Shown: in pieces, positions 2,110-54,976 of the stretch | How the letters are laid out: the number at the start of each line of letters is the position of its first letter | Numbering within the stretch: the stretch's first letter is position 1 | Assembly: GCA_045531285.1 (NCBI GenBank) | Contig: JAZSDT010000043.1 | Location: forward strand, 1-56,477 | Length of the DNA: 56,477 nucleotides | Direction of reading: 5' to 3' | Source: Eubacteriales bacterium | GTDB taxonomy: Bacteria > Bacillota > Clostridia > Oscillospirales > SIG627 | The notes under the pieces: model-generated | The model's input: only the letters and a program-made list of their open reading frames with translations | Told to the model about the DNA's origin: nothing | Databases searched by the model: none | Program-made: the position numbers and the translations under genes

Positions 2110-2137
2110 TTGACAAGATAAGAATTAATGATATAAA
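2110..2137 (+). promoter_or_regulatory. sigma-A promoter of the GH20-like gene
   Basis: TTGACA (2110-2115), 16-nt spacer, TGaTATAAA. Confidence 0.55.
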
Positions 2138-2169
2138 ATAAAAGAAAAAAGGAAAAGAGGTACAAAACA

Positions 2170-8394: not shown

Positions 8395-8554
8395 AATAAC
8401 AACCTCTCTTTCGAGTATAAATTAATGATTTATTTTATCACAAAACGAAGAATTTATCAAGCTTTTTCAAGTATTTTGGTAAATTTGTATAAATTTTGTG
8501 ACAAAGTATCCGTGTATACAATGGCAAATTTGTTTTAGTTGACAAAGTATTATG

Positions 8555-8583
8555 TTGACAAATCCTGTCCTGAGTGATAAAAT
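8555..8583 (+). promoter_or_regulatory. sigma-A promoter of the anion permease gene
   Basis: TTGACA (8555-8560), 17-nt spacer, TGaTAAAAT (8575-8583). Confidence 0.6.
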
Positions 8584-8611
8584 TTTAAAAAAAGATTAGA
8601 AAGCGAAGAAA

Positions 8612-9718
8612 ATGAACTCCTTTACGTACTTTGTTAAAAAAAACGCCGTTATGTGCATAGCGTTAATTGCGGCATTGATAACAAGTGTTATTGTGCCTCC
8701 GGACAGGGAATATCTTGGATATTTTGACCTGAGAACACTGACCTGTTTGTTCTGTGTTTTGGCTGTGGTTTGCGCTTTGAAGAACATTCGTTTTTTCTAT
8801 ATGCTTGCCAGAAAGGTAGTACAGCTTTTCAAGAATGCCAGAATGAGCATACTTGCCCTTGTGTACATAACCTTTATCGGTTCTATGCTCATTGCCAACG
8901 ATATGGCACTTATTACTTTTCTTCCCCTTGGCTATCTGGTACTGGACTCTACAGGGATGAAAAAGTATATGGCATTCACCTTCATTATGCAGAATATTGC
9001 CGCTAATCTGGGCGGAATGCTTACCCCCTTTGGCAATCCTCAGAATCTTTATTTGTATTCAAGCTACGGAATACCCACAATGGAATTTATGGGTATAATG
9101 CTTCCGCCTTTTCTTTTGGCAGTTGCTCTCATTACACTTTGCTGTATTGTTTTTGTAAAGCCCGAGGCACTGTCTCTGCCCGAGGAAAAAATGAAGCTAA
9201 ACCCACAGAAGACGGCTATATATCTGGTGCTTTTTGCTTTATCCATCGTAATAGTTTTCAGAGGCATTCCGTATTGGATAGGGCTTATTGTTATACCGCT
9301 GGCACTTATGCCCCTTGACAAAAGAGCATTGAAAATGGTGGATTATCCGTTAATTTTGACCTTTGTGTTCTTTTTTATATTCTCGGGTAATATGGCGAGG
9401 ATAGACGTTGTTCGTGACGTCTTTTCCGCACTTCTTCAAAAGAGCACCTTGCTTTTCAGTATTCTTTCCTGTCAGGTCATCAGCAACGTGCCCTCTGCCA
9501 TTCTGCTGTCACAGTTTACGGAAAACTATGCAGACTTGCTGGTGGGAGTCAATATCGGAGGTGTCGGTACGCTGATTTCCTCTCTTGCCAGTCTTATAAC
9601 CTTCAGAGATTACGTCAGACATAATCCCGGTAAGGCAGGAAGCTATATTTTGAAGTTTTCACTTTTTAATTTCGGCTTTTTGATTATTATGACAGCGTTT
9701 ATGTTGTTGATAAAATAG
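8612..9718 (+). CDS. ArsB/NhaD-superfamily (CitMHS/YbiR-like) anion permease
   Basis: 368 aa and polytopic. Carries a TPFGNPQNLYL motif typical of this permease superfamily. Confidence 0.55.
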   Translation: MNSFTYFVKKNAVMCIALIAALITSVIVPPDREYLGYFDLRTLTCLFCVLAVVCALKNIRFFYMLARKVVQLFKNARMSILALVYITFIGSMLIANDMALITFLPLGYLVLDSTGMKKYMAFTFIMQNIAANLGGMLTPFGNPQNLYLYSSYGIPTMEFMGIMLPPFLLAVALITLCCIVFVKPEALSLPEEKMKLNPQKTAIYLVLFALSIVIVFRGIPYWIGLIVIPLALMPLDKRALKMVDYPLILTFVFFFIFSGNMARIDVVRDVFSALLQKSTLLFSILSCQVISNVPSAILLSQFTENYADLLVGVNIGGVGTLISSLASLITFRDYVRHNPGKAGSYILKFSLFNFGFLIIMTAFMLLIK

Positions 9719-9725
9719 TGAAAAA

Positions 9726-9768
9726 GAGCTAAGATATCTTTTAAAAATTATCTTAGCTCATTCTTTAT
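9726..9768. terminator. bidirectional intrinsic terminator
   Basis: GAGCTAAGATA...TATCTTAGCTC, with AAAAA upstream and a T-rich tail. Confidence 0.7.
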
Positions 9769-9855
9769 ATGCTAGGAAATTGCATTAAATCAACCTCGCC
9801 GTTTTACGTTGTCAAAGGTTACAATAGGCGAGGATTGCCAGCGGCTCCATTCGGC
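9766..9855 (-). repeat. intergenic structured repeat, copy 5
   Basis: TATATGCTAGGAAATTGCATTAAATCAACCTCGCCG...ATAGGCGAGGATTGCCAGCGGCTCC. The hairpin end is degenerate and abuts the TAG stop of the oxidoreductase gene. Confidence 0.85.
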
Positions 9856-10886
9856 TATAACTTTCCCCCGTTGGTTTTGTATATCGCTTCTATTATCTGT
9901 TGGTCAATAATAGTATTTCTTCCGTTTACAGGGGGTACGGTATCACTTATTACGGCGTTGGAGAATGCCTCTATTTCCTTGGTGTACATATTGCCAAAGT
10001 CAACCTTTATTTCCACAGGCTTCGCGGGTGCTCTGTTCTGCAGTGCATCATAGCCTGCTCCGTCATCACAGGTGAGCACCTTGACAGTGCCTCCCTCCAC
10101 TTGACCCAGAGTGCCTACTGCAACAATACTTCCCTTTGTTCCGTAGAATTCCATAGGACAGCTTGCCGCATCGTCGGGAATGTTGAAGTTTGCATCTACC
10201 ATTGCAAGTGCACCGTTATTCATCTTTATCACAACGGCAGATGAATCATCTGCTGTATATCCGAAGGTTGCATTGTGAGCAAATCCTGTGCACTCAACGG
10301 GAGTGAGTCCAGAAAGATATATGAGAAGGTCAATACAGTGGATTCCCATATCCATAAGAGCACCGCCTCCCGACAGCTTTACGTCCTGTCTCCAGCAGTT
10401 TTCCATTTTGGGATACCAGCAGGTAAACTGAGCACGCATGGAAACTATTTCGCCGATAGTACCCTTTTCAATGAGCTCCTTTATTGCCTGATGATAGGCG
10501 TGGAAGCGCATCATAAAGCCTGCACCCAGCTTTACGCCTTCCTTTTCGCAGGCGTTGATTATCTCTTCTGTGTCTGCCAGAGTAATTCCCATGGGCTTTT
10601 CCAGAAGGATATGCTTTTTTGCTTTCGCCGCCGCCAAAGCCTGTTCCTTGTGGGCGAACACGGGAGACGCAATATAAACAGCCTCCACCTCGTCAAGTGC
10701 CAGAAGGTCCTCGTATTTGTCAAAGGCATATTTGGCACCGTATTTTTCTTTTACACCTTCTGCAGCCTGAAGATTTGCATCCATTACTGCATAAAGCTCA
10801 GCGTTTTCAGCAAGCATCATACCGGGAATAGTTCTGCGGTTGGCAATACCGCCGCATCCGATTACACCCCATTTTACTTTTTTCAT
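9855..10886 (-). CDS. Gfo/Idh/MocA family oxidoreductase
   Basis: KWGVIGCGGIANRR Rossmann N-terminus and an EKP motif (LLEKPMG). Its start overlaps the upstream ABC ATPase stop. Confidence 0.85.
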   Translation of the reverse strand: MKKVKWGVIGCGGIANRRTIPGMMLAENAELYAVMDANLQAAEGVKEKYGAKYAFDKYEDLLALDEVEAVYIASPVFAHKEQALAAAKAKKHILLEKPMGITLADTEEIINACEKEGVKLGAGFMMRFHAYHQAIKELIEKGTIGEIVSMRAQFTCWYPKMENCWRQDVKLSGGGALMDMGIHCIDLLIYLSGLTPVECTGFAHNATFGYTADDSSAVVIKMNNGALAMVDANFNIPDDAASCPMEFYGTKGSIVAVGTLGQVEGGTVKVLTCDDGAGYDALQNRAPAKPVEIKVDFGNMYTKEIEAFSNAVISDTVPPVNGRNTIIDQQIIEAIYKTNGGKL

Positions 10887-11638
10887 TTCAATTTCTCCTT
10901 TATTATATAACCTTGTTGGCTTTTTATTAAATCTGCTCCAAACAGCTCACTTACAATACCTGACCCGCACACCTTTTCGGGAGTGTCCTGCATAACGCAA
11001 ACACCGTTTGACATCACTGCTATTTCGTCAAAGCAGTCGAAGGCTGTGGGAATGTCGTGCATTACAGCAACGATTCCTTTTCTGCCGGATGCAAGCTCCT
11101 TTAAGAGCCTTATCAGTGTGAATTGATTTGCAATATCCAAGTACACCGCAGGCTCATCCAATAAAATATAGTCTGTATCCTGACACAGTGCCATGGCGAT
11201 ATACACACTTTGCTTCATTCCTCCTGACAGCTGAGACATATTTTTGTCAGCAAGATGTAAAATTCCGATTTTTTCCATTGCCTGTCTTGTAAGCTCTCGG
11301 TCCCTTTGCGTGTAGCGTCTGGGATAACTGAGGTGAGGAAATCTGCCGTGAAGCACCGTTTCCGCCACTGTCATATCGGGAACATTTTTTTCCTGCGGAA
11401 GATAGGCTATCTTTTTTGCTGCGTCTGTGGGCGAAGCCTTGCCTATTTGCGTGCCGTCTGCCACTACCGTTCCGGACGTTGTGGGCAATATTCCGGCAAT
11501 TACCTTCAAAAGTGTGCTTTTCCCCGAGCCGTTTGGCCCGATAATTGCCATTGTTTTTCCTTCGCAGGCTGTCAGTGATACGTTTTGCAGCACTGTCTTT
11601 TTGCCGTAGCCTGCCGTTACGTTTTTTATTTCAATCAT
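10883..11638 (-). CDS. ABC transporter ATP-binding protein (FecE/FepC/BtuD-like)
   Basis: Walker A GPNGSGKST, signature LSGGMKQ, Walker B ILLDEP. Confidence 0.9.
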   Translation of the reverse strand: MIEIKNVTAGYGKKTVLQNVSLTACEGKTMAIIGPNGSGKSTLLKVIAGILPTTSGTVVADGTQIGKASPTDAAKKIAYLPQEKNVPDMTVAETVLHGRFPHLSYPRRYTQRDRELTRQAMEKIGILHLADKNMSQLSGGMKQSVYIAMALCQDTDYILLDEPAVYLDIANQFTLIRLLKELASGRKGIVAVMHDIPTAFDCFDEIAVMSNGVCVMQDTPEKVCGSGIVSELFGADLIKSQQGYIIKEKLK

Positions 11639-11648
11639 TGGTTCAAAA

Positions 11649-12617
11649 TCAACCTCGCCGCTTTACAATCAAAAATAGGAAGAAGGGTACACCCAGGAAC
11701 GACATAATTATTCCAACGGGTATTTCGTATGGCGAAAAAACTGTCCGCGCGGCAGTGTCGCAAACAGCGACAAAGCCTGCACCGTATATGGCGCACAAGG
11801 GTAACAAGCGCGATGATCTGTTTCCTGTAAAAAATCTTACTGTGTGTGGCACAATCAAGCCCACAAAGGACAACAGCCCTGCCAGACTTACGGCACAGCC
11901 TGCCAGTGAGGCGGCAAGTATGAGAAAAACCGTGCGCATTGCCCTTGTATTTAATCCCAGACTGCGTGCACTGTCCTCTCCCAGTGAGAGAACGTCAAGC
12001 TCGTTTGTCAGGGTAAAAAGGATTATAAGACTTATTGCTATTGCTACTGCCGAGGGTATGAGCTTTCCGTAGGTAACGGAAGTGAATTCTCCAATCTTAA
12101 AGTTGTTGCTCATTACTCCAACGTCTGTATCAAAGGTTATTACTGTGTCAGAGATAGCATTCAGAAAACTGTTTAGAGCAACACCGATCAAAATCACGGC
12201 AGATTTGGAGGTACAGTATTTTTTTGAGATAACGCTGACGGCAAGTACTGTCCCGAATGCGCCGATAAACGAAAAAAACGAAAGCAGCCAACCGCCGTAT
12301 ATTCCAAAGGCAGTGCAAAGCGTTACAGCCAACCCCGCTCCCGAATTTACTCCTATAACACCGGGAGATGCCAGATTATTGGACAGTACTCCCTGTATTA
12401 CGGCACCTGCTACTCCAAGCGCGGCACCGCATAGGATACAGGCGACGGTACGGGGGAGGCGTACGTAAACAAGTATTGTCCGTGCTGTATCAAAGTCGCA
12501 AAGAGCAAGATTGGTACTTCCCAAAGATAGCCCCAGAACCACAGCTACTGCCAGAAGCAAAAAACCGAGAATATATAAAACATCGGCTCTAGCGCAATAT
12601 TTCAAAAAGTTGTTCAT
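11649..12617 (-). CDS. FecCD-family iron-chelate/cobalamin ABC permease
   Basis: 322 aa and polytopic. LRLPRT-like RLPRTVACILCGAALGVAGAVIQ motif typical of the FecCD/BtuC family. Confidence 0.9.
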   Translation of the reverse strand: MNNFLKYCARADVLYILGFLLLAVAVVLGLSLGSTNLALCDFDTARTILVYVRLPRTVACILCGAALGVAGAVIQGVLSNNLASPGVIGVNSGAGLAVTLCTAFGIYGGWLLSFFSFIGAFGTVLAVSVISKKYCTSKSAVILIGVALNSFLNAISDTVITFDTDVGVMSNNFKIGEFTSVTYGKLIPSAVAIAISLIILFTLTNELDVLSLGEDSARSLGLNTRAMRTVFLILAASLAGCAVSLAGLLSFVGLIVPHTVRFFTGNRSSRLLPLCAIYGAGFVAVCDTAARTVFSPYEIPVGIIMSFLGVPFFLFLIVKRRG

Positions 12618-13524
12618 AGCTTTGTGCCCAGCGACCGTTGGGCTTGAGATTAAACAGACGTCTGTCCATAAAATGCAATCTGCCTTCTCTCACAGCCTCA
12701 AGGGTGTTCCACGCAGGATCTTCCTCCAGCATTCGTGATATGTTTTTCTTTGCTTTTTCGGTGTCGTTACCCATTGTAACAACAAAGATTCGGTACGGCT
12801 CGTTTTGTATAATGCTTTCCACACTAAGCTCTTCAAGAAGTCCGGAGCTGCTGTCTGCAATATTAACAAGCCCTGCATCCTTCAGCATCTCCCCGAGCAC
12901 TGTTCCCTCACTGCCCTTTGCCTTAACCGCACCCGATGAGGCACGGAGCAGAAGTATTTTCTTTTGACTTTCGGGAATAAACGTATTTGATTTAATTTCT
13001 TCTATTTGTTTTTTTACGGTCACGCCGTTTTTTTCATAAAGGTCTTTTCTGCCTGTTATATCGGTACATATATCCAGCATTGCAAGATAGTCCTCGAAGC
13101 AGTCAACGTCGAAATAGGCGACCGTTGTGCCCACGTTTTCCAGCACGTTAAGTAATTCAACGTTGGAGGCTGTTGAAGCACTTGCTATCACAAGGTCACA
13201 AGACGCTGAAAGAAGCAGCTCAAGGTTCGGGGAATGTGCACCTCCAAGATTTACGGCGTCAAGTTCCAGCCCAAAATCCTCCCAGGCGTCCTCGGCTGTG
13301 GCACAGACCGTTCCGCCGGCAAGCTGCCAAACCTCAGCAAAGCTTCCAATGAGAGCGGCAACCCTTTCGGGATTCTTTTGTACGGTGACTTCTCTTTCCA
13401 GAGCGTCGGTGAAGGTAATGCTGTCGCTTGTGGGCTTTTCTTCCGTTGTACATCCAAGCAAAAACAGAGAGAAAAGCAATATCAGAAAAAAGAGATTATT
13501 TGCCCAAAAGCTTCTTTTCAACAT
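12589..13524 (-). CDS. ABC substrate-binding lipoprotein (Peripla_BP_2, FhuD/BtuF-like)
   Basis: The start was moved to ATG 13524 (MLKRSFW...). The lipobox LLGC is followed by the typical class-8 SBP layout. The track start 13557 would overlap the upstream gene by 62 nt. Confidence 0.8.
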   Translation of the reverse strand: MLKRSFWANNLFFLILLFSLFLLGCTTEEKPTSDSITFTDALEREVTVQKNPERVAALIGSFAEVWQLAGGTVCATAEDAWEDFGLELDAVNLGGAHSPNLELLLSASCDLVIASASTASNVELLNVLENVGTTVAYFDVDCFEDYLAMLDICTDITGRKDLYEKNGVTVKKQIEEIKSNTFIPESQKKILLLRASSGAVKAKGSEGTVLGEMLKDAGLVNIADSSSGLLEELSVESIIQNEPYRIFVVTMGNDTEKAKKNISRMLEEDPAWNTLEAVREGRLHFMDRRLFNLKPNGRWAQSYEQLFEILR

Positions 13525-14425
13525 AATCAAATCCGAGTCTTTCAATAGTGTCGGCAAAACGCTCTCCCTTGATTCCTTCGTCGCGGAAAAGAAGTATTGC
13601 TCTTTCCACGGTTGTCAGCACCTCTTCTTCGGAGCAAAATACTTTTGACAGCGGTTTTCCTTGGGCTGTCTTTTTGCCCCAGCGTCCGCCGATACATATC
13701 TTATAGCCCTTTACGGCAGAAGAAAATACACCGAAGGGACATTTTTCAAAACAGCGTCCGCACCTGTTGCATTTTTGGGTATCAAGATTTATTTTTTCGC
13801 CGTTCAGGGTAACGGCTTTCATAGGACAGGCAAGCTCGACGGCACATTTTTTACAGCCACGGCACTTGTCGGTAATGGGGATAAATACTCTCTGTCCGAT
13901 TATACCCACGTCATTTAAGTCGGGCTTCACGCAGTTATTCGGACATCCTCCCACAGCAATTTTAAACTTATGGGGAAGCACTACATCGTGATAACCTACG
14001 TAGAAGCGTTCGTGTATTTTTTGGCTCAGAGAAAAGGTATCTATGAGACCGAAAACACAGGTAGTTCCCTTGCAGGAAACAACGGGTCTTACCTTCGGTC
14101 CCGTTCCGCCTGTTTCCAGTCCTTTTTCTTTCAAAAAGAGAATGAGAGCGGGAATGTTATCGTATTTTACACCTTGAATCTCAACGGTCATACGGCTTGT
14201 CATTGCTACCTCAGACGAGCCGAAACGGTCGGCTGCTTCGGCTATTGCCCTTTGCTTGTCGGTGGTTATTTTGCCGTTTCCGGTTATTACTCTCACGTTG
14301 AAAACGTCATCGAAGCGTTTGTCTCTCAGGCATCCGAGTCCCTTTACTTTTGCAATTTGTTCGGCTGTGAGAACACCGTTTTTCTTTTCAAGTCCCAATA
14401 TTTCAAAAGCTTTTGAAGTGTTCAT
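13496..14425 (-). CDS. nitrite/sulfite-reductase-like siroheme/[4Fe-4S] protein with inserted 2x[4Fe-4S] ferredoxin domain (AsrC/Dsr-like)
   Basis: C-x5-C (SCKGTTC) and C-x3-C (GGCPNNC) siroheme-cluster cysteines. Two ferredoxin motifs, CRGCKKCAVELACP and CNRCGRCFEKCP. Confidence 0.7.
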   Translation of the reverse strand: MNTSKAFEILGLEKKNGVLTAEQIAKVKGLGCLRDKRFDDVFNVRVITGNGKITTDKQRAIAEAADRFGSSEVAMTSRMTVEIQGVKYDNIPALILFLKEKGLETGGTGPKVRPVVSCKGTTCVFGLIDTFSLSQKIHERFYVGYHDVVLPHKFKIAVGGCPNNCVKPDLNDVGIIGQRVFIPITDKCRGCKKCAVELACPMKAVTLNGEKINLDTQKCNRCGRCFEKCPFGVFSSAVKGYKICIGGRWGKKTAQGKPLSKVFCSEEEVLTTVERAILLFRDEGIKGERFADTIERLGFDYVEKKLLGK

Positions 14426-14516: not shown

Positions 14517-14545
14517 TTGCATTTAAACAAATAGTGTGGTAAAAT
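14517..14545 (+). promoter_or_regulatory. sigma-A promoter of pncA-nadE
   Basis: TTGCAT, 17-nt spacer, TGgTAAAAT extended -10. Confidence 0.6.
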
Positions 14546-14564
14546 GAATCAAAAGGAGATTGTT

Positions 14565-15074
14565 ATGAAAATACTTATAGTTGTTGATATGCAAAAAGAC
14601 TTTATCGACGGTGCACTTGGCAGTGCCGAAGCGGTAAAAATAGTACCATACGTAAAGAAGCTTATCGAAGGCTTTGACGGAAAGGTGTTGTTTACAAGAG
14701 ACACACATTTTGAAAACTATCTTGACACGCAGGAGGGAAAAAATCTTCCTGTTCGGCACTGTATCAAGGGGACTGAGGGATGGCAGATATATCCCGAGCT
14801 TGAAGCCTTGAGAAAAACAGAGGCAGTGGACAAGCTGACCTTTGGTTCAAAGGAGCTTGTAGACGTGCTGAGTAAGGAAGAAAACGTTGAGGAGATAGTC
14901 TTTGCAGGACTTTGCACGGATATTTGCGTTATATCCAACGTGGCAGTCGTTAAGGCATTCTTTCCCGAGACACCTCTTGTCGTTGATGCAAGGGGCTGTG
15001 CCGGAGTAACACCCGAAAGTCACAAAACGGCACTTGATGCAATGAGAGCAATTCAGGTCAGAATCGAGGAGTAA
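14565..15074 (+). CDS. pncA: isochorismatase-family cysteine hydrolase, nicotinamidase-like
   Basis: The start was moved to ATG 14565 (GGAG RBS); the track's ATG 14544 lies inside the -10 box. VVDMQKDF, HCIKGTEGW and GLCTDICV match B. subtilis-type PncA. The gene is adjacent to nadE. Confidence 0.7.
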   Translation: MKILIVVDMQKDFIDGALGSAEAVKIVPYVKKLIEGFDGKVLFTRDTHFENYLDTQEGKNLPVRHCIKGTEGWQIYPELEALRKTEAVDKLTFGSKELVDVLSKEENVEEIVFAGLCTDICVISNVAVVKAFFPETPLVVDARGCAGVTPESHKTALDAMRAIQVRIEE

Positions 15075-15078
15075 GAAG

Positions 15079-15816
15079 ATGTTTAACGCAAAGAGAATTA
15101 AAGAGGCTTGCGTTCAGTGGATAAGAGAATTTTTTGAAAATAACGGCAAGGACTGTAATGCCGTTGTGGGAATATCCGGCGGTAAGGACAGCTCGGTGGT
15201 TGCCGCTTTATGCGTTGAGGCGCTGGGGCGTGACAGAGTAGTGGGTGTCCTGATGCCTTGCGGAGAACAGCACGATATAGACTGTGCTTATAAGCTGGTG
15301 GAACACCTTGGAATACGTCATTTTATTATAAATATAAAGGATGCTGTCGAAGGGCTTCGCAACGCTATGCCCCAAGGACTTGAGCTGACTGCACAGACTC
15401 TCACGAACATTCCGCCCAGAGTCAGAATGACAACTCTTTACGCGGTGTCTCAGAGTGTCAACGGTCGTGTGGCAAACACCTGTAATCTTTCTGAAGATTG
15501 GGTTGGCTATTCCACACGCTACGGTGATGCGGCGGGAGATTTCAGCCCTCTTTCAAGGCTTACCGTGGCAGAGGTAAAGGCGATAGGACATGAGCTTGGG
15601 CTTCCTGCAGACCTTGTAGAGAAAACACCTATAGACGGTCTTTGCGGAAGGACGGATGAGGACAATCTGGGATTCACCTACGCGGAGCTTGACCGTTATA
15701 TCAGAACGGGCAAAATTGATGATATGGAAAAGAAGGCTTCCATAGACAGAAAACACAAAATGAATCTGTTTAAGCTTCAGCTTATGCCTTCATTTGACCC
15801 GGGACAAATACAGTGA
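15079..15816 (+). CDS. nadE: ammonia-dependent NAD+ synthetase
   Basis: GISGGKDSSVVAALC PP-loop and a length of 245 aa. GAGGAG RBS. Confidence 0.85.
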   Translation: MFNAKRIKEACVQWIREFFENNGKDCNAVVGISGGKDSSVVAALCVEALGRDRVVGVLMPCGEQHDIDCAYKLVEHLGIRHFIINIKDAVEGLRNAMPQGLELTAQTLTNIPPRVRMTTLYAVSQSVNGRVANTCNLSEDWVGYSTRYGDAAGDFSPLSRLTVAEVKAIGHELGLPADLVEKTPIDGLCGRTDEDNLGFTYAELDRYIRTGKIDDMEKKASIDRKHKMNLFKLQLMPSFDPGQIQ

Positions 15817-35458: not shown

Positions 35459-36457
35459 TTACTGACAAACTGTTTCGCTGTTGAAATCTGTTAAAACAAA
35501 ATCCTTTACTTCGTTACCGTGAAGTCCTACCGACAGGGCGATGGATAGCTTTACGTAAAGCATTTCCAAGGTCATGGAAGCAGGAGTCAGGTCACATTCC
35601 TTTAAGGCTTCATACACCGACTCATACTGTTGTTCTCCCAAGGTACAGGGAGCAACGAACAGCGGAATACCGTGCTCTTTGCAACGGTGCGCAAGGCTCA
35701 CCAAGGAGTACTTGCCGTCGTTGGTACAAAAGGTACCCGAGTGATAGCTTCCGTGCGCGACTGCCGTTATGCCGTCAAGGTCGATTCTCGAATAGTCGAG
35801 ATTTACATAGGGCTGTATCATCAGCACCGAAGGCTCAAGGTGCTTTATCGAAAAGGGAAGGGGCTTTCTGTTTTTTGAAACACTGTCAAGCTCATCTAAA
35901 GCATAGTGTTTTGCACTGTAAAAATCCGAAGAAAAGCTTGGGGATTGCATAAGAAGCGAGGCAAGGTGCAGTATCATTTCTCCGTTTGAATTACGGTATG
36001 GCACGTATACGTTGGGGGCGATGCCCGAAAGAAGTAGCTCAACTGCCTTTGCAAAATTATCGTTGGCATTGCTGCTTGGCATATCGGGAGGAGCATCACC
36101 GGACACCAGCATTATGGGCGTGGGGGTGTCGGAACAAACCATTGCAAGAAGCGATGCTGTGTATGCCAAGGTGTCAGTACCGTGAAGGATTACGATTCCC
36201 GAATATTTACACAGCTCGATACCTCGGATGTGCTCTATAAGTCCTTCGAGCTTTTGAAACGTCATATTTTCGCTGAGTGTTTTCTGTAAAAAGCCCGAAT
36301 TTTCAAATATGCCTCCCGAAAGAGAGGCATATTTTGAGTTATTATAAAAGTTTTTTACAACGGTAGATTCCGATACGTCAGGGGCAAGCCTTCTGCAACC
36401 GTCGATGAGACGCGAGCAGATCGTGCCGCCGGTTGATATTATCAGAATTTTTTTCAT
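35459..36457 (-). CDS. L-asparaginase/glutaminase family protein (type I AnsA/GatD-core-like)
   Basis: ILIISTGGTICS (nucleophile Thr motif TGGTI) and ILHGTDTLAYT (HGTDT motif) are both intact. The ATG overlaps the gatB TGA as ATGA. Confidence 0.8.
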   Translation of the reverse strand: MKKILIISTGGTICSRLIDGCRRLAPDVSESTVVKNFYNNSKYASLSGGIFENSGFLQKTLSENMTFQKLEGLIEHIRGIELCKYSGIVILHGTDTLAYTASLLAMVCSDTPTPIMLVSGDAPPDMPSSNANDNFAKAVELLLSGIAPNVYVPYRNSNGEMILHLASLLMQSPSFSSDFYSAKHYALDELDSVSKNRKPLPFSIKHLEPSVLMIQPYVNLDYSRIDLDGITAVAHGSYHSGTFCTNDGKYSLVSLAHRCKEHGIPLFVAPCTLGEQQYESVYEALKECDLTPASMTLEMLYVKLSIALSVGLHGNEVKDFVLTDFNSETVCQ

Positions 36458-37890
36458 TGCTTGTTTACCGCATCAATAAGCATTTCACGAAGAGTCTGAG
36501 GGTCACAGTTGCCCTTAAGCTCCTTCATACACTTTCCAAAGAGTGCCATAAGAGCCTTTTCCTTACCGCCCTTGAAGTCTGCAACAGCCTTGGGGTCGGC
36601 GGCAATAGCGGCATTGATAACCTCTTCTATCTTGCCTGTGTCGTTTGATACGATAAAGCCTTCCTTCTCGGCATATTCACCGGGGTTTACACCCTCGTCA
36701 AACATAGCCGCAAGTATCTTCTTTGCATTGGGACGGCTTACCTTACCTTCGGTTACAAGGTTGATAAGCTCTCCAAGAGCTTTGCCGTCAAGCGTGAGCA
36801 TATCCACTGTCATCTGCTTCTTGTTAAGAAGATTCATACAGTCTGAAATAAGGTAGTTTGCCGCTTCCTTTGCATTTCCGCATACAGCGTAAGCCGCTTC
36901 AAAGCAATCGCAGAAGGCACGGCTTTCGGTAAGCTGGTCGGCATCGTATTCACCAAGTCCAAGCTCTTCGATATATTTAGCACGCTTGATTTCGGGGAAT
37001 TCGGGAAGTGATGCCTTTATGCTGTCATACCATTCGTCATCAATAACAACAGGCATTACGTTGGGGTCGGGGAAGTAACGGTAATCACCTGCGGTTTCCT
37101 TGTTTCTCATGGCGTAGCTCTTACCCTTTACGTCGTCCCAACGGCGCGTTTCCTGAACAAGCTCCTCTGTGCCGTTTTCAATAGCGTCGATGTGACGTGC
37201 CACTTCGTACTCAATTGCACGGGTGATGGCGGTGAGCGAGTTCATATTCTTCATTTCGGTTCTTACACCAAGCTTGTCGCTTCCCTCGGGACGAACCGAG
37301 AGGTTAACGTCGCAACGCATAGAGCCCTGCTCCATACGGCAATCCGATACCTTTGCAAAGCGAAGAAGGGAGCGAAGTCTTTCAAGATAAGCGATAACCT
37401 CTTCGGCGCTTGAAAGGTCGGGCTGGCTTACTATTTCAATAAGGGGAACGCTGGTTCTGTTGAAGTCAACAAGGGTAGTGTTTGTCCAATCGTCATGGAC
37501 AAGCTTACCTGCATCCTCCTCCATGTGTATCTGCTTGATACGCACGTTCTTTTTACCCTTTGACGTCTCTATTTCCACAGTGCCGTTTACAGCAACAGGT
37601 GCAAACCACTGTGTAGTCTGATATGCATTGGGAAGGTCGGGATAGTAGTAGCTCTTCTTGTCAAAGGTGGTTGTGCGGTTGATGTCACAGCCCAGCATCA
37701 TACCTGCTGTCATACCAAGGTCAACTACCTTCTTATTAACAATGGGAAGCATACCGGGCATACCGCAGCATGCAGGGCAAACGTGATCGTTCTGCTCTCC
37801 GCCGAACTTTGCGGAGCATGAACAGAATATTTTCGATTCGGTAGCAAGCTCAACGTGAACCTCAAGACCGATGACTGTTTCAAATTTCAT
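36454..37890 (-). CDS. gatB: aspartyl/glutamyl-tRNA(Asn/Gln) amidotransferase subunit B
   Basis: MKFETVIGLEVHVEL...CPACCGMPG...; 478 aa with a YqeY-like tail. Confidence 0.95.
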   Translation of the reverse strand: MKFETVIGLEVHVELATESKIFCSCSAKFGGEQNDHVCPACCGMPGMLPIVNKKVVDLGMTAGMMLGCDINRTTTFDKKSYYYPDLPNAYQTTQWFAPVAVNGTVEIETSKGKKNVRIKQIHMEEDAGKLVHDDWTNTTLVDFNRTSVPLIEIVSQPDLSSAEEVIAYLERLRSLLRFAKVSDCRMEQGSMRCDVNLSVRPEGSDKLGVRTEMKNMNSLTAITRAIEYEVARHIDAIENGTEELVQETRRWDDVKGKSYAMRNKETAGDYRYFPDPNVMPVVIDDEWYDSIKASLPEFPEIKRAKYIEELGLGEYDADQLTESRAFCDCFEAAYAVCGNAKEAANYLISDCMNLLNKKQMTVDMLTLDGKALGELINLVTEGKVSRPNAKKILAAMFDEGVNPGEYAEKEGFIVSNDTGKIEEVINAAIAADPKAVADFKGGKEKALMALFGKCMKELKGNCDPQTLREMLIDAVNKQ

Positions 37891-37905: not shown

Positions 37906-39069
37906 TTACATTTTTACAAGCTCTAAAAGAGCCTTTTCGGAGAATACTTTTCCTACAAGCTGAACACCCTTTGCAACCACTGCGGGAAGTCCCGTAATGC
38001 TTGCGGGGGCTGTATAAAGGTTTTCGTCGTATGAAATACCCTTTACAGCTTCTTCAGTGTATGCCTTTTTAGACGTTGCGGGCATAAGCACTGCATCAAC
38101 GCTGTCAAAAAGCGAATCAAAATAATCAACGGTAACTCGGCGTATTCTCATAGCCTTGTCATACATCTTCATATAGTTATCGTCCGAAAGAGTTTCTGAA
38201 CCAAAAAGAATAGCCTTCTTCAAAAGGTCACCGAACGCTTCGGTACGGCTGTTTGTGTAAAGCTCGTCAATAGTGGTATAATCTGCGGTTCTGTAGCCGT
38301 ATTTTACACCGTCATATTTTGAAACGTTGTTACAAAGCTCGGCTGACATAAGGATGTTCCAAGCGGTTTTTGCCGCAAGGAGTCCTGTGCCGTCCACAGT
38401 CTTTACCTCAATGCCCTTACCTTCAAGCTCCTTGACAAACGCATCTACGTCTGCTTTAACTTCGGCATCAACGCTGTCATCAAATGCAGTTACCACAGCC
38501 ACGCTCTTTATTTCGGATTCTTCTGCTATCATATCCTCGGGAAGACTTGTGCCGTCCTTTGCATCGTAGCCCGAAATAACGTCAAGCACTTCAAGGCAAG
38601 ACTCGGCATCCTTTGCCATAACTCCAACGCAATCGCCGGAGCAAGCAACGGGAACGATACCGTATCTTGATACAGTTCCGTAGGTGGGCTTTACGAAAAC
38701 AAGCCCGTTTGTAGCAGCGGCACGGCGAGGTGCTCCGTTAGCATCCAGCTGAATTGCAGCTTTTACGTTTTCATTTTTGAGTATTTCGGCTGACGCAAGT
38801 GAAAGGTTGCCCTTTTCATCCTTTACGGCACCGAAATAAGAGGTTTCGCCCATAACGTCGATTGCGAACTCTCCCACGTTTGCCTTGCCTGCAATTTCAT
38901 ATCCTGCAGACGCCAGCTTTTCAACAACTGTTGCTTCGAACAGACTCTTGTAGCCCTCAAGCATTTTTGAGCCTGCGGTTGTGGGCATATCCTTGGTGAG
39001 AATCATATCGTCAAGTACTACCGCCTTATCGGTCTTGACAGTGTTTTTTGTTATATACATTGACGACAC
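37906..39069 (-). CDS. gatA: GatA-like amidase-signature protein, truncated and apparently lacking the Ser nucleophile
   Basis: 387 aa versus about 485 for canonical GatA. TTAGSKMLEG and KPTYGTVSRYG are conserved. GGSSGG...GGSIR is replaced by GNLSLAS...NGAPR. The gene sits between gatC and gatB. Confidence 0.8.
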   Translation of the reverse strand: MSSMYITKNTVKTDKAVVLDDMILTKDMPTTAGSKMLEGYKSLFEATVVEKLASAGYEIAGKANVGEFAIDVMGETSYFGAVKDEKGNLSLASAEILKNENVKAAIQLDANGAPRRAAATNGLVFVKPTYGTVSRYGIVPVACSGDCVGVMAKDAESCLEVLDVISGYDAKDGTSLPEDMIAEESEIKSVAVVTAFDDSVDAEVKADVDAFVKELEGKGIEVKTVDGTGLLAAKTAWNILMSAELCNNVSKYDGVKYGYRTADYTTIDELYTNSRTEAFGDLLKKAILFGSETLSDDNYMKMYDKAMRIRRVTVDYFDSLFDSVDAVLMPATSKKAYTEEAVKGISYDENLYTAPASITGLPAVVAKGVQLVGKVFSEKALLELVKM

Positions 39070-39073
39070 CTCC

Positions 39074-39355
39074 TTATTCTACAAGACGGGGAACCTGCCA
39101 GTAACCGTCGTTTGTTTCGGGTGCTGACTGCTGAAGCTCGTCTCTTGTGAAATTCTTTATTTCCTTGTCCTCACGCACTACCGTCAAAACGGGCATTACG
39201 TGAACCATTCTTTCCACGTCCTCGGTGTTTATTTCCGAGAGTGCTTCGGTTTCCTTTTCCTGCTTTGCCCAAAACTCAAGGAACTCCGTTTCTTGCTCCT
39301 CGGTAAGAGAAAGCTGGTTAAGCTTTTCAAGTCTTTTGAGTATCTTTATATCCAT
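39074..39355 (-). CDS. gatC: aspartyl/glutamyl-tRNA amidotransferase subunit C
   Basis: 93 aa. LSLTEEQ...VHVMP...REDK pattern of GatC, at the operon position upstream of gatA. Confidence 0.85.
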   Translation of the reverse strand: MDIKILKRLEKLNQLSLTEEQETEFLEFWAKQEKETEALSEINTEDVERMVHVMPVLTVVREDKEIKNFTRDELQQSAPETNDGYWQVPRLVE

Positions 39356-39385: not shown

Positions 39386-41116
39386 TCAGTCTCTGACCTT
39401 GATGTGTACTTCTCTGAGCTGCTGCTCTGTAACCTCACCGGGTGCTCCCATCATAAGATCCTGCGCATTTCCGTTCAAGGGGAACGCAATAACGTCACGG
39501 ATGGTCTCTTCTTCTGCGATGAGCATTATCATTCTGTCAACACCGGGTGCCATACCTGCGTGAGGAGGAGCACCGTAGGAGAATGCTGTGTAGAGAGCGC
39601 CGAACTTAGCCTTAACGTCCTCTTCACCGTATCCTGCGATTTCAAACGCCTTTCTCATTATTTCGGGGTTGTGGTTTCTTACAGCACCAGAGGAAAGCTC
39701 TACGCCGTTACATACGATGTCGTACTGATAAGCGAATATTTCAAGGGGATCCTTGTTAAGAAGAGCATCCATACCGCCCTGAGGCATTGAGAAGGGGTTG
39801 TGTGTAAAGTCTATCTTATTTGTTTCTGTGTTGAGCTCGTACATGGGGAAGTCAACGATAAAGCAGAACTCAAACTTATCCTTGTTTATAACGTCAAGCT
39901 CCTGACCGAGCCACGTTCTTATTTCGCCTGCTTCCTTGTTTACAACGTTGATAGCGTCGCAAATGAAGAATACCGTTTCGCCTTCCTTGATGCCTACTCT
40001 TGCAGTAAGGTCAGCCTTCTGCTCTTCGGAAAGGAACTTGGCAATGGGACCCTTGTACTCGTTGCCGTTGAGAGTAAGATAGCCAAGACCCTTCATACCG
40101 ATGCTCATAGCAAACTTAAGAGATTCTTCAAAGAATTTCTTTGACTTACCCGAACAGTCTGCAACAATACCTCTTACAGGTTTGCCCTTGAAAAGAGGGA
40201 AGTCAACGTTTGCAAAGAAGTCTGTCAGATCCTCAATGATGAGGGGGTTTCTCAGGTCAGGCTTGTCTGTACCGTACTTGAGCATTGATTCAGCGAAGGT
40301 AATTCTGCGGAAGGGAGGCTTTGAAACCTCCTTGTTGCTGAATTCCTTGAAGGTGTTGTATACAACTGTTTCAGCTACTCCAAATACGTCCTCCTGTGTT
40401 GCAAAGGACATTTCAAAGTCAAGCTGATAGAATTCTCCGGGTGAACGGTCCTGACGTGCATCCTCGTCTCTGAAGCAAGGAGCTATCTGGAAATAACGGT
40501 CAAAGCCCGATGCCATAAGAAGCTGCTTGAACTGCTGAGGAGCCTGAGGAAGAGCATAGAATTTGCCCTTGTGCTTACGGCTGGGAACAAGGTAGTCTCT
40601 TGCACCCTCGGGAGAAGAAGCTGTAAGTATGGGAGTCTGTATTTCAAGGAATCCCAGAGCTTCCATCTGTGAACGGAGATAGCTGAGTATCTTTGAACGA
40701 AGCACGATATTGTCGTGAATCTTTCTGTTTCTAAGGTCGAGGTAGCGATATTTAAGTCTTACTTCCTCTCTTGTCTGTACGGAAGAATCGATTTCAAAGG
40801 GAAGTCCCAACTGACAGGGACCAAGCACCTCAATTTTGTCTGCCTTAACTTCAACCGTACCTGTTGCAAGCTTGGGGTTGACTGTCTCGGCATCACGCTC
40901 GGTAACAGTACCCTCTACAAGTACAACGGTCTCCTTTGATATGCCTGCAAGCATCTTATCGTCTGAAAATACTATCTGTGTAATTCCGTAATGGTCACGA
41001 AGGTCTACGAAAAGTACTCCTCCATGGTCTCTTACTGTTTCGATCCAACCGGTGAGAGTCACCTTCTGACCGATATGTTCGTTGTTCAATTCGTTACAGT
41101 TATGTGTTCTTAACAT
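39386..41116 (-). CDS. aspS: aspartate--tRNA ligase (bacterial type; possibly non-discriminating)
   Basis: The start was moved to ATG 41116; the track's TTG 41131 is itself the GGAGG RBS. LRTHNCNEL...GWIETVRDHGGVLFVDLRDHYG, class II motifs and the GAPPHAG motif are present. Confidence 0.95.
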   Translation of the reverse strand: MLRTHNCNELNNEHIGQKVTLTGWIETVRDHGGVLFVDLRDHYGITQIVFSDDKMLAGISKETVVLVEGTVTERDAETVNPKLATGTVEVKADKIEVLGPCQLGLPFEIDSSVQTREEVRLKYRYLDLRNRKIHDNIVLRSKILSYLRSQMEALGFLEIQTPILTASSPEGARDYLVPSRKHKGKFYALPQAPQQFKQLLMASGFDRYFQIAPCFRDEDARQDRSPGEFYQLDFEMSFATQEDVFGVAETVVYNTFKEFSNKEVSKPPFRRITFAESMLKYGTDKPDLRNPLIIEDLTDFFANVDFPLFKGKPVRGIVADCSGKSKKFFEESLKFAMSIGMKGLGYLTLNGNEYKGPIAKFLSEEQKADLTARVGIKEGETVFFICDAINVVNKEAGEIRTWLGQELDVINKDKFEFCFIVDFPMYELNTETNKIDFTHNPFSMPQGGMDALLNKDPLEIFAYQYDIVCNGVELSSGAVRNHNPEIMRKAFEIAGYGEEDVKAKFGALYTAFSYGAPPHAGMAPGVDRMIMLIAEEETIRDVIAFPLNGNAQDLMMGAPGEVTEQQLREVHIKVRD

Positions 41117-41139
41117 TGGTTTTTCCTCCAATATATTAT

Positions 41140-41400
41140 TTACTTTAAAAATTAAAAATGCCCTTCGCCCCCAAATATGGGACGAAAGGCAACTTCCGCG
41201 ATACCACCCAAATTGACTTTGAAAACAAAGTCCTCTCTTGTCACATTCACGCAGTGTAACGTGCGGTTCTAATCACCCTGTGGGCTTTCTTCCGCCGGCT
41301 CCGAAGCGTTTTTCCCATAAGACTTGCTGCCGTTCTCACACCTGCAACGACTCTCTTTGAGCAGTAACTTACGGTACTCTCTTCATCACAACCATTTTGA
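41140..41400 (-). promoter_or_regulatory. T-box riboswitch leader of the aspS-gatCAB operon
   Basis: On the minus strand I read a GA/K-turn (GUGAUGAAG), AGAGAGUA, an AG bulge (AAAGAGAG) and a distal loop (GCAGGUGUGAG). The T-box sequence AAUUUGGGUGGUAUCGCGG lies at plus 41196-41214. A terminator hairpin at 41160-41190 is followed by a U-run. Confidence 0.85.
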
Positions 41401-41459: not shown

Positions 41460-42683
41460 TTATTTACAGAAGTTTATTACTTTGCCGCTTAGCTCGTCAT
41501 CCGACATTTTTACAATATCGTCGGCTATCAACCTGATTCCCATGTCGTCGGCACGGGCCTTCAGAATTTTTCCAAATCCCGCACTGACGTCGAGGGCTGA
41601 TGCTACAAGAAGCTTTTTGGCGTACTTGCCTCCGAAGCGTTGCGCTACGGTATTCAGTTTGTACAGCTCGTCTATGTCAACGTAGCCGTTTTTACAGGAA
41701 ACGAAAACGGGACACATACCGCGCATCATCATTACGTCTATTTCGTTTTCAGTGTCGGTTCCTGTTTTTTTGCCGTCCCAATCAATGCACACTCCTGTCA
41801 ACACGTCGTTAAAAACGGGAGTGCCGTCTTTTTCTGCGGCTCTTACGGCTGTGGCATATATTTTCATCTCAAGCGCCTGACCTGCCTTGGTAAGACATCT
41901 TTTTACGTTGGCGTTTTTGTATCTCAGCTTAAATTTTGAGCCGTTGAATTCCCAGCTCTTTATAAGCCCTTGATTCAAGAGCATATTCATGGTTTCATCA
42001 TCAAAGCTCTGCTTTGTGATAAGTCTTTCTGTGTAGGTAGTCAACAGATGAACGTTTGCGTTTGATTCAAGGCTGTTGTTTTCAGTGGATTTGTCAGCCG
42101 CCTCGAATACCGTAACAAGATTGTTCCAGCCCTTGACGTCTCTCTTGCAGACGTTCCATATTTTGTCTACGTCTTCAAAAAGCTCACGGCTGTTATCCCA
42201 TCTGCGTGTGGCACCCTCATCCCAAATCACTCTGCCACCGTATACAGCTACGTTTTCCTCTACGCTAAGGTTGGGAAAGGGAGAAAAATCGGGTTTGCCG
42301 TTATTGTCGCAGTCATAGACCTTATTTGAATTTATATTAAATCTTACAAGCTCGATGCTTTTTTCGGGGAACCTTTCAAAGATTATACCTGCTCCCACAA
42401 GATAAAGCTCATCACCGCCCGTAAGGTCAAATACACAGTTTTCGTAGCTGTTTACAATATTTCCAAAAAGCTCAACGATACCGTCCAGGTTGTTGCGGCT
42501 CAGGGCTTGTATAATAAATTGAGTTTTTTGGCCTCGGTTTGTCAGGATCTGCTTGTAATTTTCTACAAACCTCTCCATTTGTTTTCTGTCTTTGCCTACG
42601 AAAATCACTCTTTCGGGTGTTTTACAAAGACAGGCACAGATATTTTCAGTTGCCGTTTTATCGAAAAATTCTATATACGTCAT
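41460..42683 (-). CDS. Card1/Can2-like protein: CARF-like N-domain plus DUF1887 PD-(D/E)xK nuclease-like C-domain
   Basis: The N-terminal Rossmann-like region carries FDLTGGDE. The C-terminus carries ALEMKIY..., NEIDVMMMRGMCPVFVSCKNG and ELYKLNTVAQRFGGKYAKKLLVAS, resembling the DUF1887 E...(I/L)D...ECK...GG pattern. Recognition is by eye only. Confidence 0.55.
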   Translation of the reverse strand: MTYIEFFDKTATENICACLCKTPERVIFVGKDRKQMERFVENYKQILTNRGQKTQFIIQALSRNNLDGIVELFGNIVNSYENCVFDLTGGDELYLVGAGIIFERFPEKSIELVRFNINSNKVYDCDNNGKPDFSPFPNLSVEENVAVYGGRVIWDEGATRRWDNSRELFEDVDKIWNVCKRDVKGWNNLVTVFEAADKSTENNSLESNANVHLLTTYTERLITKQSFDDETMNMLLNQGLIKSWEFNGSKFKLRYKNANVKRCLTKAGQALEMKIYATAVRAAEKDGTPVFNDVLTGVCIDWDGKKTGTDTENEIDVMMMRGMCPVFVSCKNGYVDIDELYKLNTVAQRFGGKYAKKLLVASALDVSAGFGKILKARADDMGIRLIADDIVKMSDDELSGKVINFCK

Positions 42684-43672
42684 TATCCGAATACTCCTGC
42701 GAATTTAAGCAAAAAGGACGCAAGTCCTACTGAAAGTGCCGAAAAGACGGTGGTAAATACCACAAGCTGTCCCGCAAGCACTACGTCACTTTTCATTTCC
42801 TGAGCCATTGGCACACTGGATACAGCAACGGGAGTTGCAAAAAGCGCAACAAGAGATGCAAAGTGAGCACCTGTAAAGCTGTCCTTGAAAAGTATGTAAG
42901 CCACTCCCAAGCCAAGCAAGGGCACTACAAATACTCTGAGCGCCGTACCGTAGATTATCTCCTTTTTAAGTGAGGCTACAGCAGAAAATTCAAACTGTGC
43001 ACCCAGCACCAGAAGAGACAGAGGTGTTGCCGTGTCGGACAAATATCCCAGTGCTTTGTACAAGGGGGTTACGTCTCTCAGGCGGAATTCAATCCCCACC
43101 TTGACGAACACCACGCGGATAGCAAGAGCAAGACAGCCTGCAAGGACGCTTAAGATCAAAGGATTGGTTATTATATTGTGCAGTACGTATTTAACGCTTG
43201 TTTTCTTTCCTTCCTTGGAGAAAATAGAAAGGCTTATAACAGCTAAGGTGTTGAATATAGGAATTGTAACCGCGGACAACAGTGCCGCCACGGCTACGCC
43301 CTCCTGACCGAAAAGAGACTGAGCAAGAGGTATTCCGATAAGTGCGAAATTGGAACGAAAGGACGCCTGAAGCAAAGCTCCTCGGCTGCCTCCGTTTTTT
43401 GTTATTCTCATAACCAGAGGAATACTTACGGCAAAAATAAACAGCACCACAGCTACGGCATATACAATGTATCCGAAGCTGACCTGTCCGATATCTTCAA
43501 TTTTATATACGTTTAAGAAAAGCATTGCCGGCAAACAAATTCTGAAAACTATTGTGTTTGCCTTTTTTGAAAATTCAGGGGGCATAAAGCCCTTCTTTTT
43601 GAGGAAATACCCCAACACTACCATAAGCACTATTGGCATAACGGCATTTATTGCAAAGATTAATGATTCCAC
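42683..43672 (-). CDS. AEC-family (auxin efflux carrier-like) permease
   Basis: About 10 TM segments with N-terminus IFAINAVMPIVLMVVLGYFLKKKGF typical of the AEC/MleP family. GTG 43672 is preferred over GTG 43681 on RBS (GAAGG) spacing. Its stop overlaps the Card1-like ATG by 1 nt. Confidence 0.75.
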   Translation of the reverse strand: MESLIFAINAVMPIVLMVVLGYFLKKKGFMPPEFSKKANTIVFRICLPAMLFLNVYKIEDIGQVSFGYIVYAVAVVLFIFAVSIPLVMRITKNGGSRGALLQASFRSNFALIGIPLAQSLFGQEGVAVAALLSAVTIPIFNTLAVISLSIFSKEGKKTSVKYVLHNIITNPLILSVLAGCLALAIRVVFVKVGIEFRLRDVTPLYKALGYLSDTATPLSLLVLGAQFEFSAVASLKKEIIYGTALRVFVVPLLGLGVAYILFKDSFTGAHFASLVALFATPVAVSSVPMAQEMKSDVVLAGQLVVFTTVFSALSVGLASFLLKFAGVFG

Positions 43673-43690
43673 TCGGTGCACCTTCTTTTT

Positions 43691-54773: not shown

Positions 54774-54802
54774 TTGACAAAACCTTTTTTATAGTGTATA
54801 AT
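54774..54802 (+). promoter_or_regulatory. sigma-A promoter of rplJL
   Basis: TTGACA (54774-54779), 17-nt spacer, TATAAT (54797-54802). Both hexamers match the consensus. Confidence 0.8.
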
Positions 54803-54976
54803 CCACCTGTTGACCTAAGACAGTAGGTGACGCGAAAGCGTCGTAATATTCGCCTACCGAGGAAAACCTTGAATTTTAAAATCTGTACTTATGTATATTT
54901 TTGCGAATTTTCGGTTCTTTCATCGGTTGGTGAAGGAACCTTTTTTATTTCAAATTTACCCGGAGGTGAAACACGA
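54803..54976 (+). promoter_or_regulatory. ribosomal protein L10 leader with attenuator hairpin
   Basis: A long 5' UTR upstream of rplJ. Hairpin GGTTCTTTCA/TGAAGGAACC (54913-54940) is followed by TTTTTT, consistent with the Firmicute L10-leader attenuation mechanism. Confidence 0.65.

Follow-up and report, generated by a model that had tools for sequence, protein, structure and literature searches.

A conserved GatA homologue without the catalytic residues in T-box-controlled aspS-gat operons of Clostridia

Introduction

Can an enzyme that amidates Asp-tRNA(Asn) do without a glutaminase of its own? This question is raised by a locus on a 56,477-nucleotide stretch of DNA from a Eubacteriales bacterium (assembly GCA_045531285.1, contig JAZSDT010000043.1, positions 1 to 56,477; the whole stretch is called the window below), where the gene that stands between gatC and gatB on the minus strand, here named gatA*, encodes a GatA homologue in which the residues of the amidase active site are replaced. 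The logic of GatCAB is that the glutaminase GatA is joined, via an ammonia tunnel, to the tRNA-dependent kinase-amidase GatB. GatCAB, its archaeal counterpart GatDE, the mitochondrial GatFAB and the operon type in which an Asn-responsive T-box precedes aspS and gatCAB are already known; a conserved dead GatA would surprise specialists, and no description of a conserved GatA without the catalytic triad, or of an asparaginase-like gene in bacterial gat operons, was found in the searchable open-access literature.

The reading that we favour, and consider reasonably probable on the basis of the sequences and their comparison, is that GatA* is a dead scaffold in an amidotransferase dedicated to Asn, which would take its nitrogen from an external source, most readily free ammonia, with or without the help of an asparaginase-like accessory protein, AnsX, encoded at the end of the same operon.

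Results and Discussion

GatA* keeps the GatA fold without its catalytic residues

A first-pass annotation of the window, made from the sequence alone, had placed this product between gatC and gatB, and its open reading frame (ORF; 37906-39069, minus strand) is indeed flanked by those at 39074-39355 and 36454-37890. It had also given the product 387 amino acids; the ORF itself stands, while its start probably does not. After the gatC stop comes AAGGAGGTGTCGTCAATG; the GTG at 39069, where the mechanically called ORF begins, falls within the ribosome-binding site, and an ATG at 39060 sits 7 nucleotides after AAGGAGG, a strong ribosome-binding site, in line with the strong sites that this annotation had noted in the operon. 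The public protein collection calls the identical start, ATG 39060. Since GTG 39069 lies inside the ribosome-binding site, ATG 39060 is probably the true start, so that gatA* would span 37906-39060 (minus strand) and encode 384 amino acids. GatA* is approximately 101 amino acids shorter than S. aureus GatA, with about 62 of the missing residues at the N-terminus, in agreement with the first estimates of about 100 and 60, and there is no space between gatC and gatA* for these N-terminal residues. The protein matches Pfam Amidase (PF01425) at 190.6 bits, which assigns it to the amidase-signature fold, and scores 268.4 bits with the gatA equivalog model TIGR00132, below the cut-off of 481.1.

Residues were mapped by phmmer against the solved GatAs of A. 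aeolicus (3h0l), P. aeruginosa (4wj3) and S. aureus (2df4), and by MAFFT alignments, and all of these agree. In what follows D20, L89 and A113 are numbered on the 387-amino-acid ORF translation (subtract 3 for the 384-amino-acid protein), while canonical positions are those of S. aureus. The Ser-cisSer-Lys triad (S178, S154 and K79) is absent from GatA*. The triad Lys K79, in 'IKDNI', lies opposite D20 in 'VLDDMI'; the 'GGSSGGS' loop lies opposite 'GNLSLAS', with a 4-residue deletion that leaves L89 in the place of the cis-Ser S154; and 'GGSIR' lies opposite 'NGAPR', where the nucleophile S178 has become A113. MAFFT further gives G130→D and T175→A. What the triad, Ser178 and the Gln-binding Arg/Asp pair (R334 and D418 in yeast) do is documented (PMC2330236 and PMC4027206). 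The Gln-binding residues are likewise replaced in GatA* (Y309→W, R358→A, D425→N), and they are non-canonical throughout its family.

The by-eye register of the first-pass annotation therefore held, as HMMER and MAFFT all give non-catalytic residues at the triad columns, and with it the two claims that the nucleophile Ser is replaced by Ala and that the GGSSGG loop carrying the cis-Ser is gone. Its third assignment was mistaken: it took the Lys of TTAGSKMLEG for a retained triad Lys, whereas the triad Lys belongs to the upstream (I/V)KDN motif, which here reads VLDDM, and so three triad residues are gone and not two. The idea of a pseudo-enzyme that needs another nitrogen source comes out strengthened, because the triad Lys and the Gln-binding Y309, R358 and D425 are lost as well.

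The AlphaFold2 (AF2) model of GatA* is confident, with a predicted local distance difference test score (pLDDT) of 90.4 and a predicted template modelling score (pTM) of 0.91, and its best Foldseek matches in the PDB are the GatA chains of 3h0l, 4wj3 and 2df4, at template modelling (TM) scores of 0.86-0.88 and 32-34% identity. These results show that GatA* keeps the GatA fold with none of the catalytic and Gln-binding residues left, and they support the view that, as judged from its residues, it cannot act as an amidase-signature glutaminase. The sole low-confidence stretch of the model, at residues ~250-280 of the 384-amino-acid protein (pLDDT 55-57), is the most sequence-conserved part of GatA* (NNVS..DGVKYGYR....ELYTNSRTEAFG) and is conserved in canonical GatA too; it may correspond to a surface that takes on order only once the complex has formed.

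The dead form is conserved among Clostridia

A protein search gave more than 120 clusters of homologues of 382-403 amino acids, at 59-87% identity, those with names being 'hypothetical proteins' from Clostridia or Ruminococcaceae metagenome-assembled genomes. Over 120 homologue clusters the K79 column holds D in 119 and E in the remaining one, and the cis-Ser column holds L or I. The nucleophile column is occupied by A (39 clusters), S (38), T (24), Y (15) or M (4); on this alignment it is free to vary, with no sign of selection for a nucleophile.

The same picture was obtained at the level of loci. A scan of one genome per species gave 23 GatA* loci at 45-62% identity, with the canonical GatAs standing apart at 36% or less. 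When contig look-ups are added to the scan, at least 27 loci at species level have the dead pattern in common, at identities of 44-100% and with K79→D in 27 of 27, and the order aspS-gatC-gatA*-gatB is found in every locus with enough flanking sequence. The sources are all metagenome-assembled genomes from gut, rumen or anaerobic digesters, with buffalo, goat, deer, reindeer and human gut and an anaerobic bioreactor on record.

A product that is shorter than GatA and falls below the equivalog cut-off could be that of a decaying pseudogene or an assembly artefact. This explanation is effectively refuted, given that at least 27 species-level loci, and more than 120 clusters of proteins, share the dead form; the intact reading frame, the strong ribosome-binding site, the confident fold prediction and the 82 invariant columns of the GatA* family all speak against it too. 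The earlier statement that the locus does not look like a decaying one was thus borne out, as the dead form is both widespread and under constraint.

The nature of this constraint can be seen by comparing GatA* with its partner. Close relatives show 77-93% identity in GatB and 55-82% in GatA*; when GatB divergence is held equal, the identity of canonical GatA exceeds that of its GatB by 6.6 points on average, whereas that of GatA* is on average 7.3 points lower than that of its GatB. By this measure GatA* is under relaxed but real constraint and evolves faster than its GatB, unlike canonical GatA. Such a lower conservation relative to GatB is what would be expected of a subunit whose chemistry has been lost and whose structural role has been kept.

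The same data bear on the idea that GatA* is still a hydrolase, working with new catalytic residues such as the invariant Cys140 or an Asp or Arg of a remodelled pocket. Residues D68, N108, R112, R113, C140, S141 and W234, in or around the former active site, are invariant, as that idea would have it. It is nevertheless very unlikely: the nucleophile column varies freely, the oxyanion/cis-Ser loop is deleted, the Gln-binding residues are all replaced, and the faster evolution of GatA* than of its GatB is the opposite of what canonical GatA does. We know of no amidase-signature enzyme that works without the triad.

Other GatAs have lost the triad

The GatA* family profile was searched against 1.84 billion representative proteins and the triad columns were then inspected. 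Many other GatA-like proteins without the triad were found, some of them full length. In most dead forms 'DD' stands for 'KD', 'PGGSSGG' has lost the same 4 residues, and the nucleophile is replaced. In one aspS-gatC-gatA-gatB locus (L171), whose AspRS (aspartyl-tRNA synthetase) is 69% identical to that of the window, a GatA of 452 amino acids has K→D, the loop deletion and S→E; in another (L172), an AspRS-GatC fusion is followed by a GatA of 476 amino acids that has lost K79 and S178 and has a loop of full length; and a Peptococcaceae genome (L169) has a gatC-gatA-gatB set with a dead GatA of 474 amino acids. A Clostridiaceae metagenome-assembled genome (L170) carries, at 7681-14247, a tandem of gatC-gatA1-gatB1, with a dead GatA1, and gatC-gatA2-gatB2, with a canonical GatA2. 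The two GatAs are 47% identical and the two GatBs 63%; GatA1 is full-length, with K→D, the loop deleted and S→A, and it keeps the Gln-binding residues. An AnsX-type gene lies 5 kb upstream of this tandem, at 2075-3058 on the opposite strand.

In a neighbour-joining tree the dead forms make up one clade, with the full-length proteins basal and the N-terminally truncated ones nested within; the tree is without support values and long-branch attraction is possible. Its topology suggests that a single early loss was followed by gradual reduction and that a few partial losses took place separately.

GatA* lies in an operon with the layout for tRNA-dependent Asn synthesis

Six minus-strand features make up the locus in the window: a T-box, aspS, gatC, gatA*, gatB and the asparaginase-like gene AnsX. 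The T-box, which the first-pass annotation had recognized, is real: the leader upstream of aspS (41175-41398, minus strand) scores 117.7 bits with Rfam RF00230, for a gathering score of 93. It carries an AAC (Asn) specifier, the specifier-loop consensus 'GAAauucaCC' being aligned by cmscan to 'GAAAAACGC', with AAC at the codon position; the assignment is based on this alignment to the covariance model. Likewise, 'GAAAAACAC' is found in L001, L002-L004, L006, L014, L020 and L086-L088. Operons with the dead form usually have such an Asn T-box ahead of them. Uncharged tRNA-Asn would thus be expected to induce the operon via the T-box.

The gene after the T-box, aspS (39386-41131, minus strand), encodes an intact bacterial-type AspRS of 581 amino acids with a GAD domain (NF001750, 787.6 bits, cut-off 443; Pfam tRNA-synt_2, tRNA_anti-codon and GAD), presumed to be non-discriminating. 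It is followed by gatC (39074-39355, minus strand; 93 amino acids; TIGR00135, 64.2 bits, cut-off 47.1; Pfam GatC) and, beyond gatA*, by gatB (36454-37890, minus strand; 478 amino acids; NF004012, 594.6 bits, cut-off 338; Pfam GatB_N and GatB_Yqey). Both GatC and GatB score above their NCBIfam equivalog cut-offs and look intact, as had been stated. A T-box leader with an Asn specifier, together with aspS, gatC, gatA and gatB, is the layout of an operon for tRNA-dependent Asn synthesis.

Some variation of this layout was observed among the relatives. In L001 an unusually long stretch of approximately 560 nucleotides separates the Asn T-box (6946-7172) from the downstream start of aspS. In a distant branch of the short clade (L007, L009, L010, L012, L013, L016-L019 and L021-L025) AspRS and GatC are a single ORF of about 700 amino acids, which would tie the synthetase covalently to the amidotransferase; examples of the fusion are found at 7747-9951 in L013 and 7888-9987 in L172, and the NCBIfam model NF009460 covers such fusions. 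The fusion-clade operons (L007-L025, by motif) retain the T-box core GGTGGCACCGCG. The leader of L013 (7633-7820) scores 51.6 bits, less than the Rfam gathering score of 93, with its specifier region unaligned.

The operon context also bears on a further alternative, according to which the GatA* complex is a paralogue with a specialised or regulatory role and amidation relies on a canonical GatA encoded elsewhere, either in a separate GatCAB or exchanging into this one. The tandem of L170 shows that dead and live copies can share one genome, and the analysis takes in only the 56-kb window, where Pfam searches of most large ORFs, 40 of them outside the operon, revealed no second amidase, asnS, glnS, asnA, asnB, class I glutamine amidotransferase, glutaminase or Amt. 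On the other side, the operon has its own intact and strongly conserved GatB and GatC, an AspRS and a tRNA-Asn-responsive T-box, and the AspRS-GatC fusion of many relatives fits a working transamidosome rather than a decoy. We regard this alternative as improbable.

An asparaginase-like gene accompanies the operon

The last gene of the operon, AnsX (35459-36457, minus strand), encodes an asparaginase-like protein of 332 amino acids (Pfam Asparaginase, 92.7 bits) and belongs to a family of proteins of about 325-372 amino acids from the same kinds of organisms. In one possible reading, to which we give a minor share of our confidence, AnsX is a docked subunit dedicated to producing ammonia, as GatD is in archaeal GatDE; it would hydrolyse Gln or Asn, and the ammonia would pass by way of the dead GatA* to the tunnel of GatB. 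Such an enzyme would combine GatCAB and GatDE in a hybrid of four subunits, and, with Asn as the donor, the by-product Asp would be the substrate of AspRS, while free Asn would be salvaged without asparaginyl-tRNA synthetase (AsnRS).

Several observations on gene order fit such a partnership. The start of AnsX overlaps the stop of gatB as ATGA in the window, with the same overlap in L085-L086, and in L087-L088 AnsX begins one base after the gatB stop. AnsX takes fifth place in the operon both in the window and in lineages with an AnsX that shares just 46-69% identity, and upstream, convergent and divergent arrangements beside GatA* operons were found too. When all flanking ORFs were clustered, it was the only recurrent neighbour within 10 kb, at 7 of the 23 GatA* loci, and the genome scan found it at none of 57 loci with canonical gatA; the clustering revealed no other recurrent neighbour in the 23 loci, and specifically no class I glutamine amidotransferase, glutaminase, Amt or asnA/asnB. 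The presence of an AnsX-type gene 5 kb from the full-length dead GatA of L170 points in the same direction. Yet 16 of the 23 GatA* operons are without AnsX within 10 kb, and AnsX of the Q type, defined below, also occurs in aspS-gat operons with a fully canonical GatA (L096, L103 and L138). The link proposed at first between the short GatA and the asparaginase gene therefore holds in part: AnsX is the only recurrent neighbour, but it is not always nearby, it accompanies canonical GatA as well, and it lacks a catalytic Lys. Judged from these neighbourhoods, AnsX is clearly linked genetically to the aspS-gat operon type.

The residues of AnsX likewise point both ways. T12 (the Thr nucleophile), T94 and D95 are invariant, which together with the AF2 model assigns the protein to the type I asparaginase fold; S62-E63 is conserved, and the conserved S-E-N-M motif corresponds to S-E-D-M in GatD. 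Archaeal GatD, itself a type I asparaginase homologue, performs the very role envisaged for AnsX, and the triad Lys is part of its active-site triad (PMC2330236). In AnsX, however, this Lys is replaced by Q171 in both profile and L-INS-i alignments, and it is Q, S, E or G over the clade, while GatD and canonical asparaginases have K. According to the title of a structure entry, crystals of the K188M mutant of guinea-pig asparaginase retained the substrate Asn. The N-terminal domain of GatD is also missing, the alignment covering GatD residues 95-428 only.

AnsX as a true GatD was rejected, since it has neither the N-terminal domain nor the triad Lys and scores below the cut-offs: the GatD models, with cut-offs of 310-324, give it 72-81 bits (the best NCBIfam match being GatD, 80.6 bits for a cut-off of 310), and the partner gene encodes an equivalog-level GatB and not GatE. 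The AF2 model of AnsX (pLDDT 95.6) has archaeal type I asparaginases as its closest Foldseek matches, with GatD at rank 22.

The clostridial asparaginase-like clade to which AnsX belongs (the window gene and loci L089-L152) is entirely without the triad Lys, and its subtypes differ in the residue found instead. Genes of the Q type mostly adjoin aspS-gat operons, unlike those of the S, E and G types. In human-gut contigs the E type is common, and it lies among the housekeeping genes alaS, comEC and holA and a radical-SAM gene, a setting that is uninformative on its function.

If AnsX were to produce the ammonia for the complex, the system might represent an unrecognised class of bacterial amidotransferase, with GatA as a dead scaffold, and stand as a living intermediate between GatCAB and the GatDE of archaea, a prospect that we hold to be tentative. 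With Asn as the donor, the overall reaction would be Asp-tRNA(Asn) + Asn -> Asn-tRNA(Asn) + Asp, with Asp returning to AspRS, and the organism would have a route for loading exogenous Asn onto tRNA without AsnRS.

The nitrogen would come from outside GatA*

With the amidase site of GatA* dead, the nitrogen for the complex must come from elsewhere. In the mechanism that we favour, with GatA* as a dead scaffold, uncharged tRNA-Asn would turn the operon on via the AAC T-box, AspRS would produce Asp-tRNA(Asn), and GatB would phosphorylate and then amidate it. GatA*, assembled with GatC and GatB into an active complex, would play a structural part, and ammonia would arrive from outside its amidase site, as free ammonia, from AnsX, or from both. 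The favoured source is the free ammonia of the gut habitat, which would enter through the remodelled former glutaminase pocket, possibly opened by the N-terminal and loop deletions; the co-translated AnsX would then probably be a local ammonia generator or an accessory.

Gut, rumen and anaerobic-digester habitats are ammonia-rich. Free ammonia is a plausible donor because NH4Cl is accepted by enzymes of this kind, because the habitats of the carriers are rich in ammonia and because the deletions could open the pocket. For such enzymes exogenous ammonia is an accepted donor, and in yeast GatFAB trimming of the protein over the glutaminase site raised the NH4Cl-dependent activity (PMC4027206).

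Four observations weigh against this mechanism or parts of it. First, L170 has a canonical gatCAB beside the dead copy, and a canonical gatCAB may likewise exist elsewhere in the source genome of the window, in which case the GatA* complex need not be the only amidotransferase. Second, the former pocket keeps family-specific invariant residues (D68, W234, N108, R112 and R113), so that it may still bind something rather than be an open hole. Third, most GatA* operons have no AnsX close by, as described above. Fourth, AnsX is without the triad Lys, which makes its release of ammonia uncertain.

If the dead-scaffold mechanism holds, a species-rich and conserved clade has kept GatB, GatC and the GatA fold while erasing the glutaminase site, and glutaminase coupling would be dispensable in nature. 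The clade raises the questions of whether an amidotransferase runs on free ammonia in vivo, what the GatA fold contributes apart from chemistry, and whether bacteria have taken on an asparaginase-type partner in the way that archaea took on GatD. There is also a practical side. Public records label the dead GatAs 'hypothetical protein', 'amidase family protein' or, wrongly, 'GatA', and with such labels the synthesis of Asn-tRNA and asparagine in gut and rumen Clostridia may be misjudged by metabolic reconstructions.

Comparison with known systems

The system shares with bacterial GatCAB (2DF4, 3H0L and 4WJ3) the gatC-gatA-gatB order, equivalog-level GatB and GatC and the GatA fold of GatA*, and it differs in that GatA* is without the triad, the Gln-binding residues and approximately 62 N-terminal residues. 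Without the triad and the Gln-binding residues, GatA* cannot, by its sequence, be the glutaminase that defines GatA.

In archaeal GatDE (P. abyssi, 1ZQ1; M. thermautotrophicus, 2D6F) a type I asparaginase homologue is, as here, genetically coupled to a kinase-amidase of the GatB/GatE type, and the Thr nucleophile, the Thr-Asp pair and an S-E-(D/N)-M motif are common to GatD and AnsX. Unlike GatD, AnsX has no GatD N-terminal domain and no triad Lys, its partner is GatB and not GatE, a GatA-fold subunit and GatC are retained, and Foldseek puts plain archaeal asparaginases above GatD.

A T-box(Asn)-controlled aspS-gatCAB operon is reported from Clostridium acetobutylicum (Saad et al. 2012, J Biol Chem 287:20382). 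It resembles the present one in having a tRNA-Asn-responsive T-box before an AspRS and GatCAB set in a clostridial genome. Its GatA reportedly works; in the window, by contrast, the GatA is the dead form and the operon ends with the asparaginase-like AnsX.

Yeast mitochondrial GatFAB (4N0H) is also a non-canonical subunit variant of the same enzyme, and it accepts NH4Cl (PMC4027206), but it retains an active GatA triad (S154, cis-S130 and K52), its variation lying in the GatC-like subunit. AtzE-AtzG of s-triazine catabolism (6C62), which is among the structural matches, offers another precedent, as its GatA and GatC homologues have left the canonical role and kept the partnership with a small subunit. 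AtzE, however, works as an amidase on a new substrate and has no link to GatB or tRNA, whereas GatA* has lost its chemistry and stays in a tRNA operon.

Other features of the window

Directly upstream of the T-box lie a gene for a 407-amino-acid protein with a weak Card1-like endonuclease domain (41460-42683) and a transporter of the Mem_trans family (42683-43681), and L085 and L086 have these two genes ahead of the operon as well. A 245-amino-acid NAD synthase (15079-15816) adjoins an isochorismatase-family gene (14544-15074); it is without an attached glutaminase domain and has the size of the ammonia-dependent form, which fits an ammonia-using lifestyle and proves nothing. The remaining genes of the window are ordinary housekeeping genes, such as rpsB, tsf, IMPDH, lgt and folD, and a ribosomal protein L10 leader (RF00557, 71.5 bits) is located near the window end, at 54796-54954.

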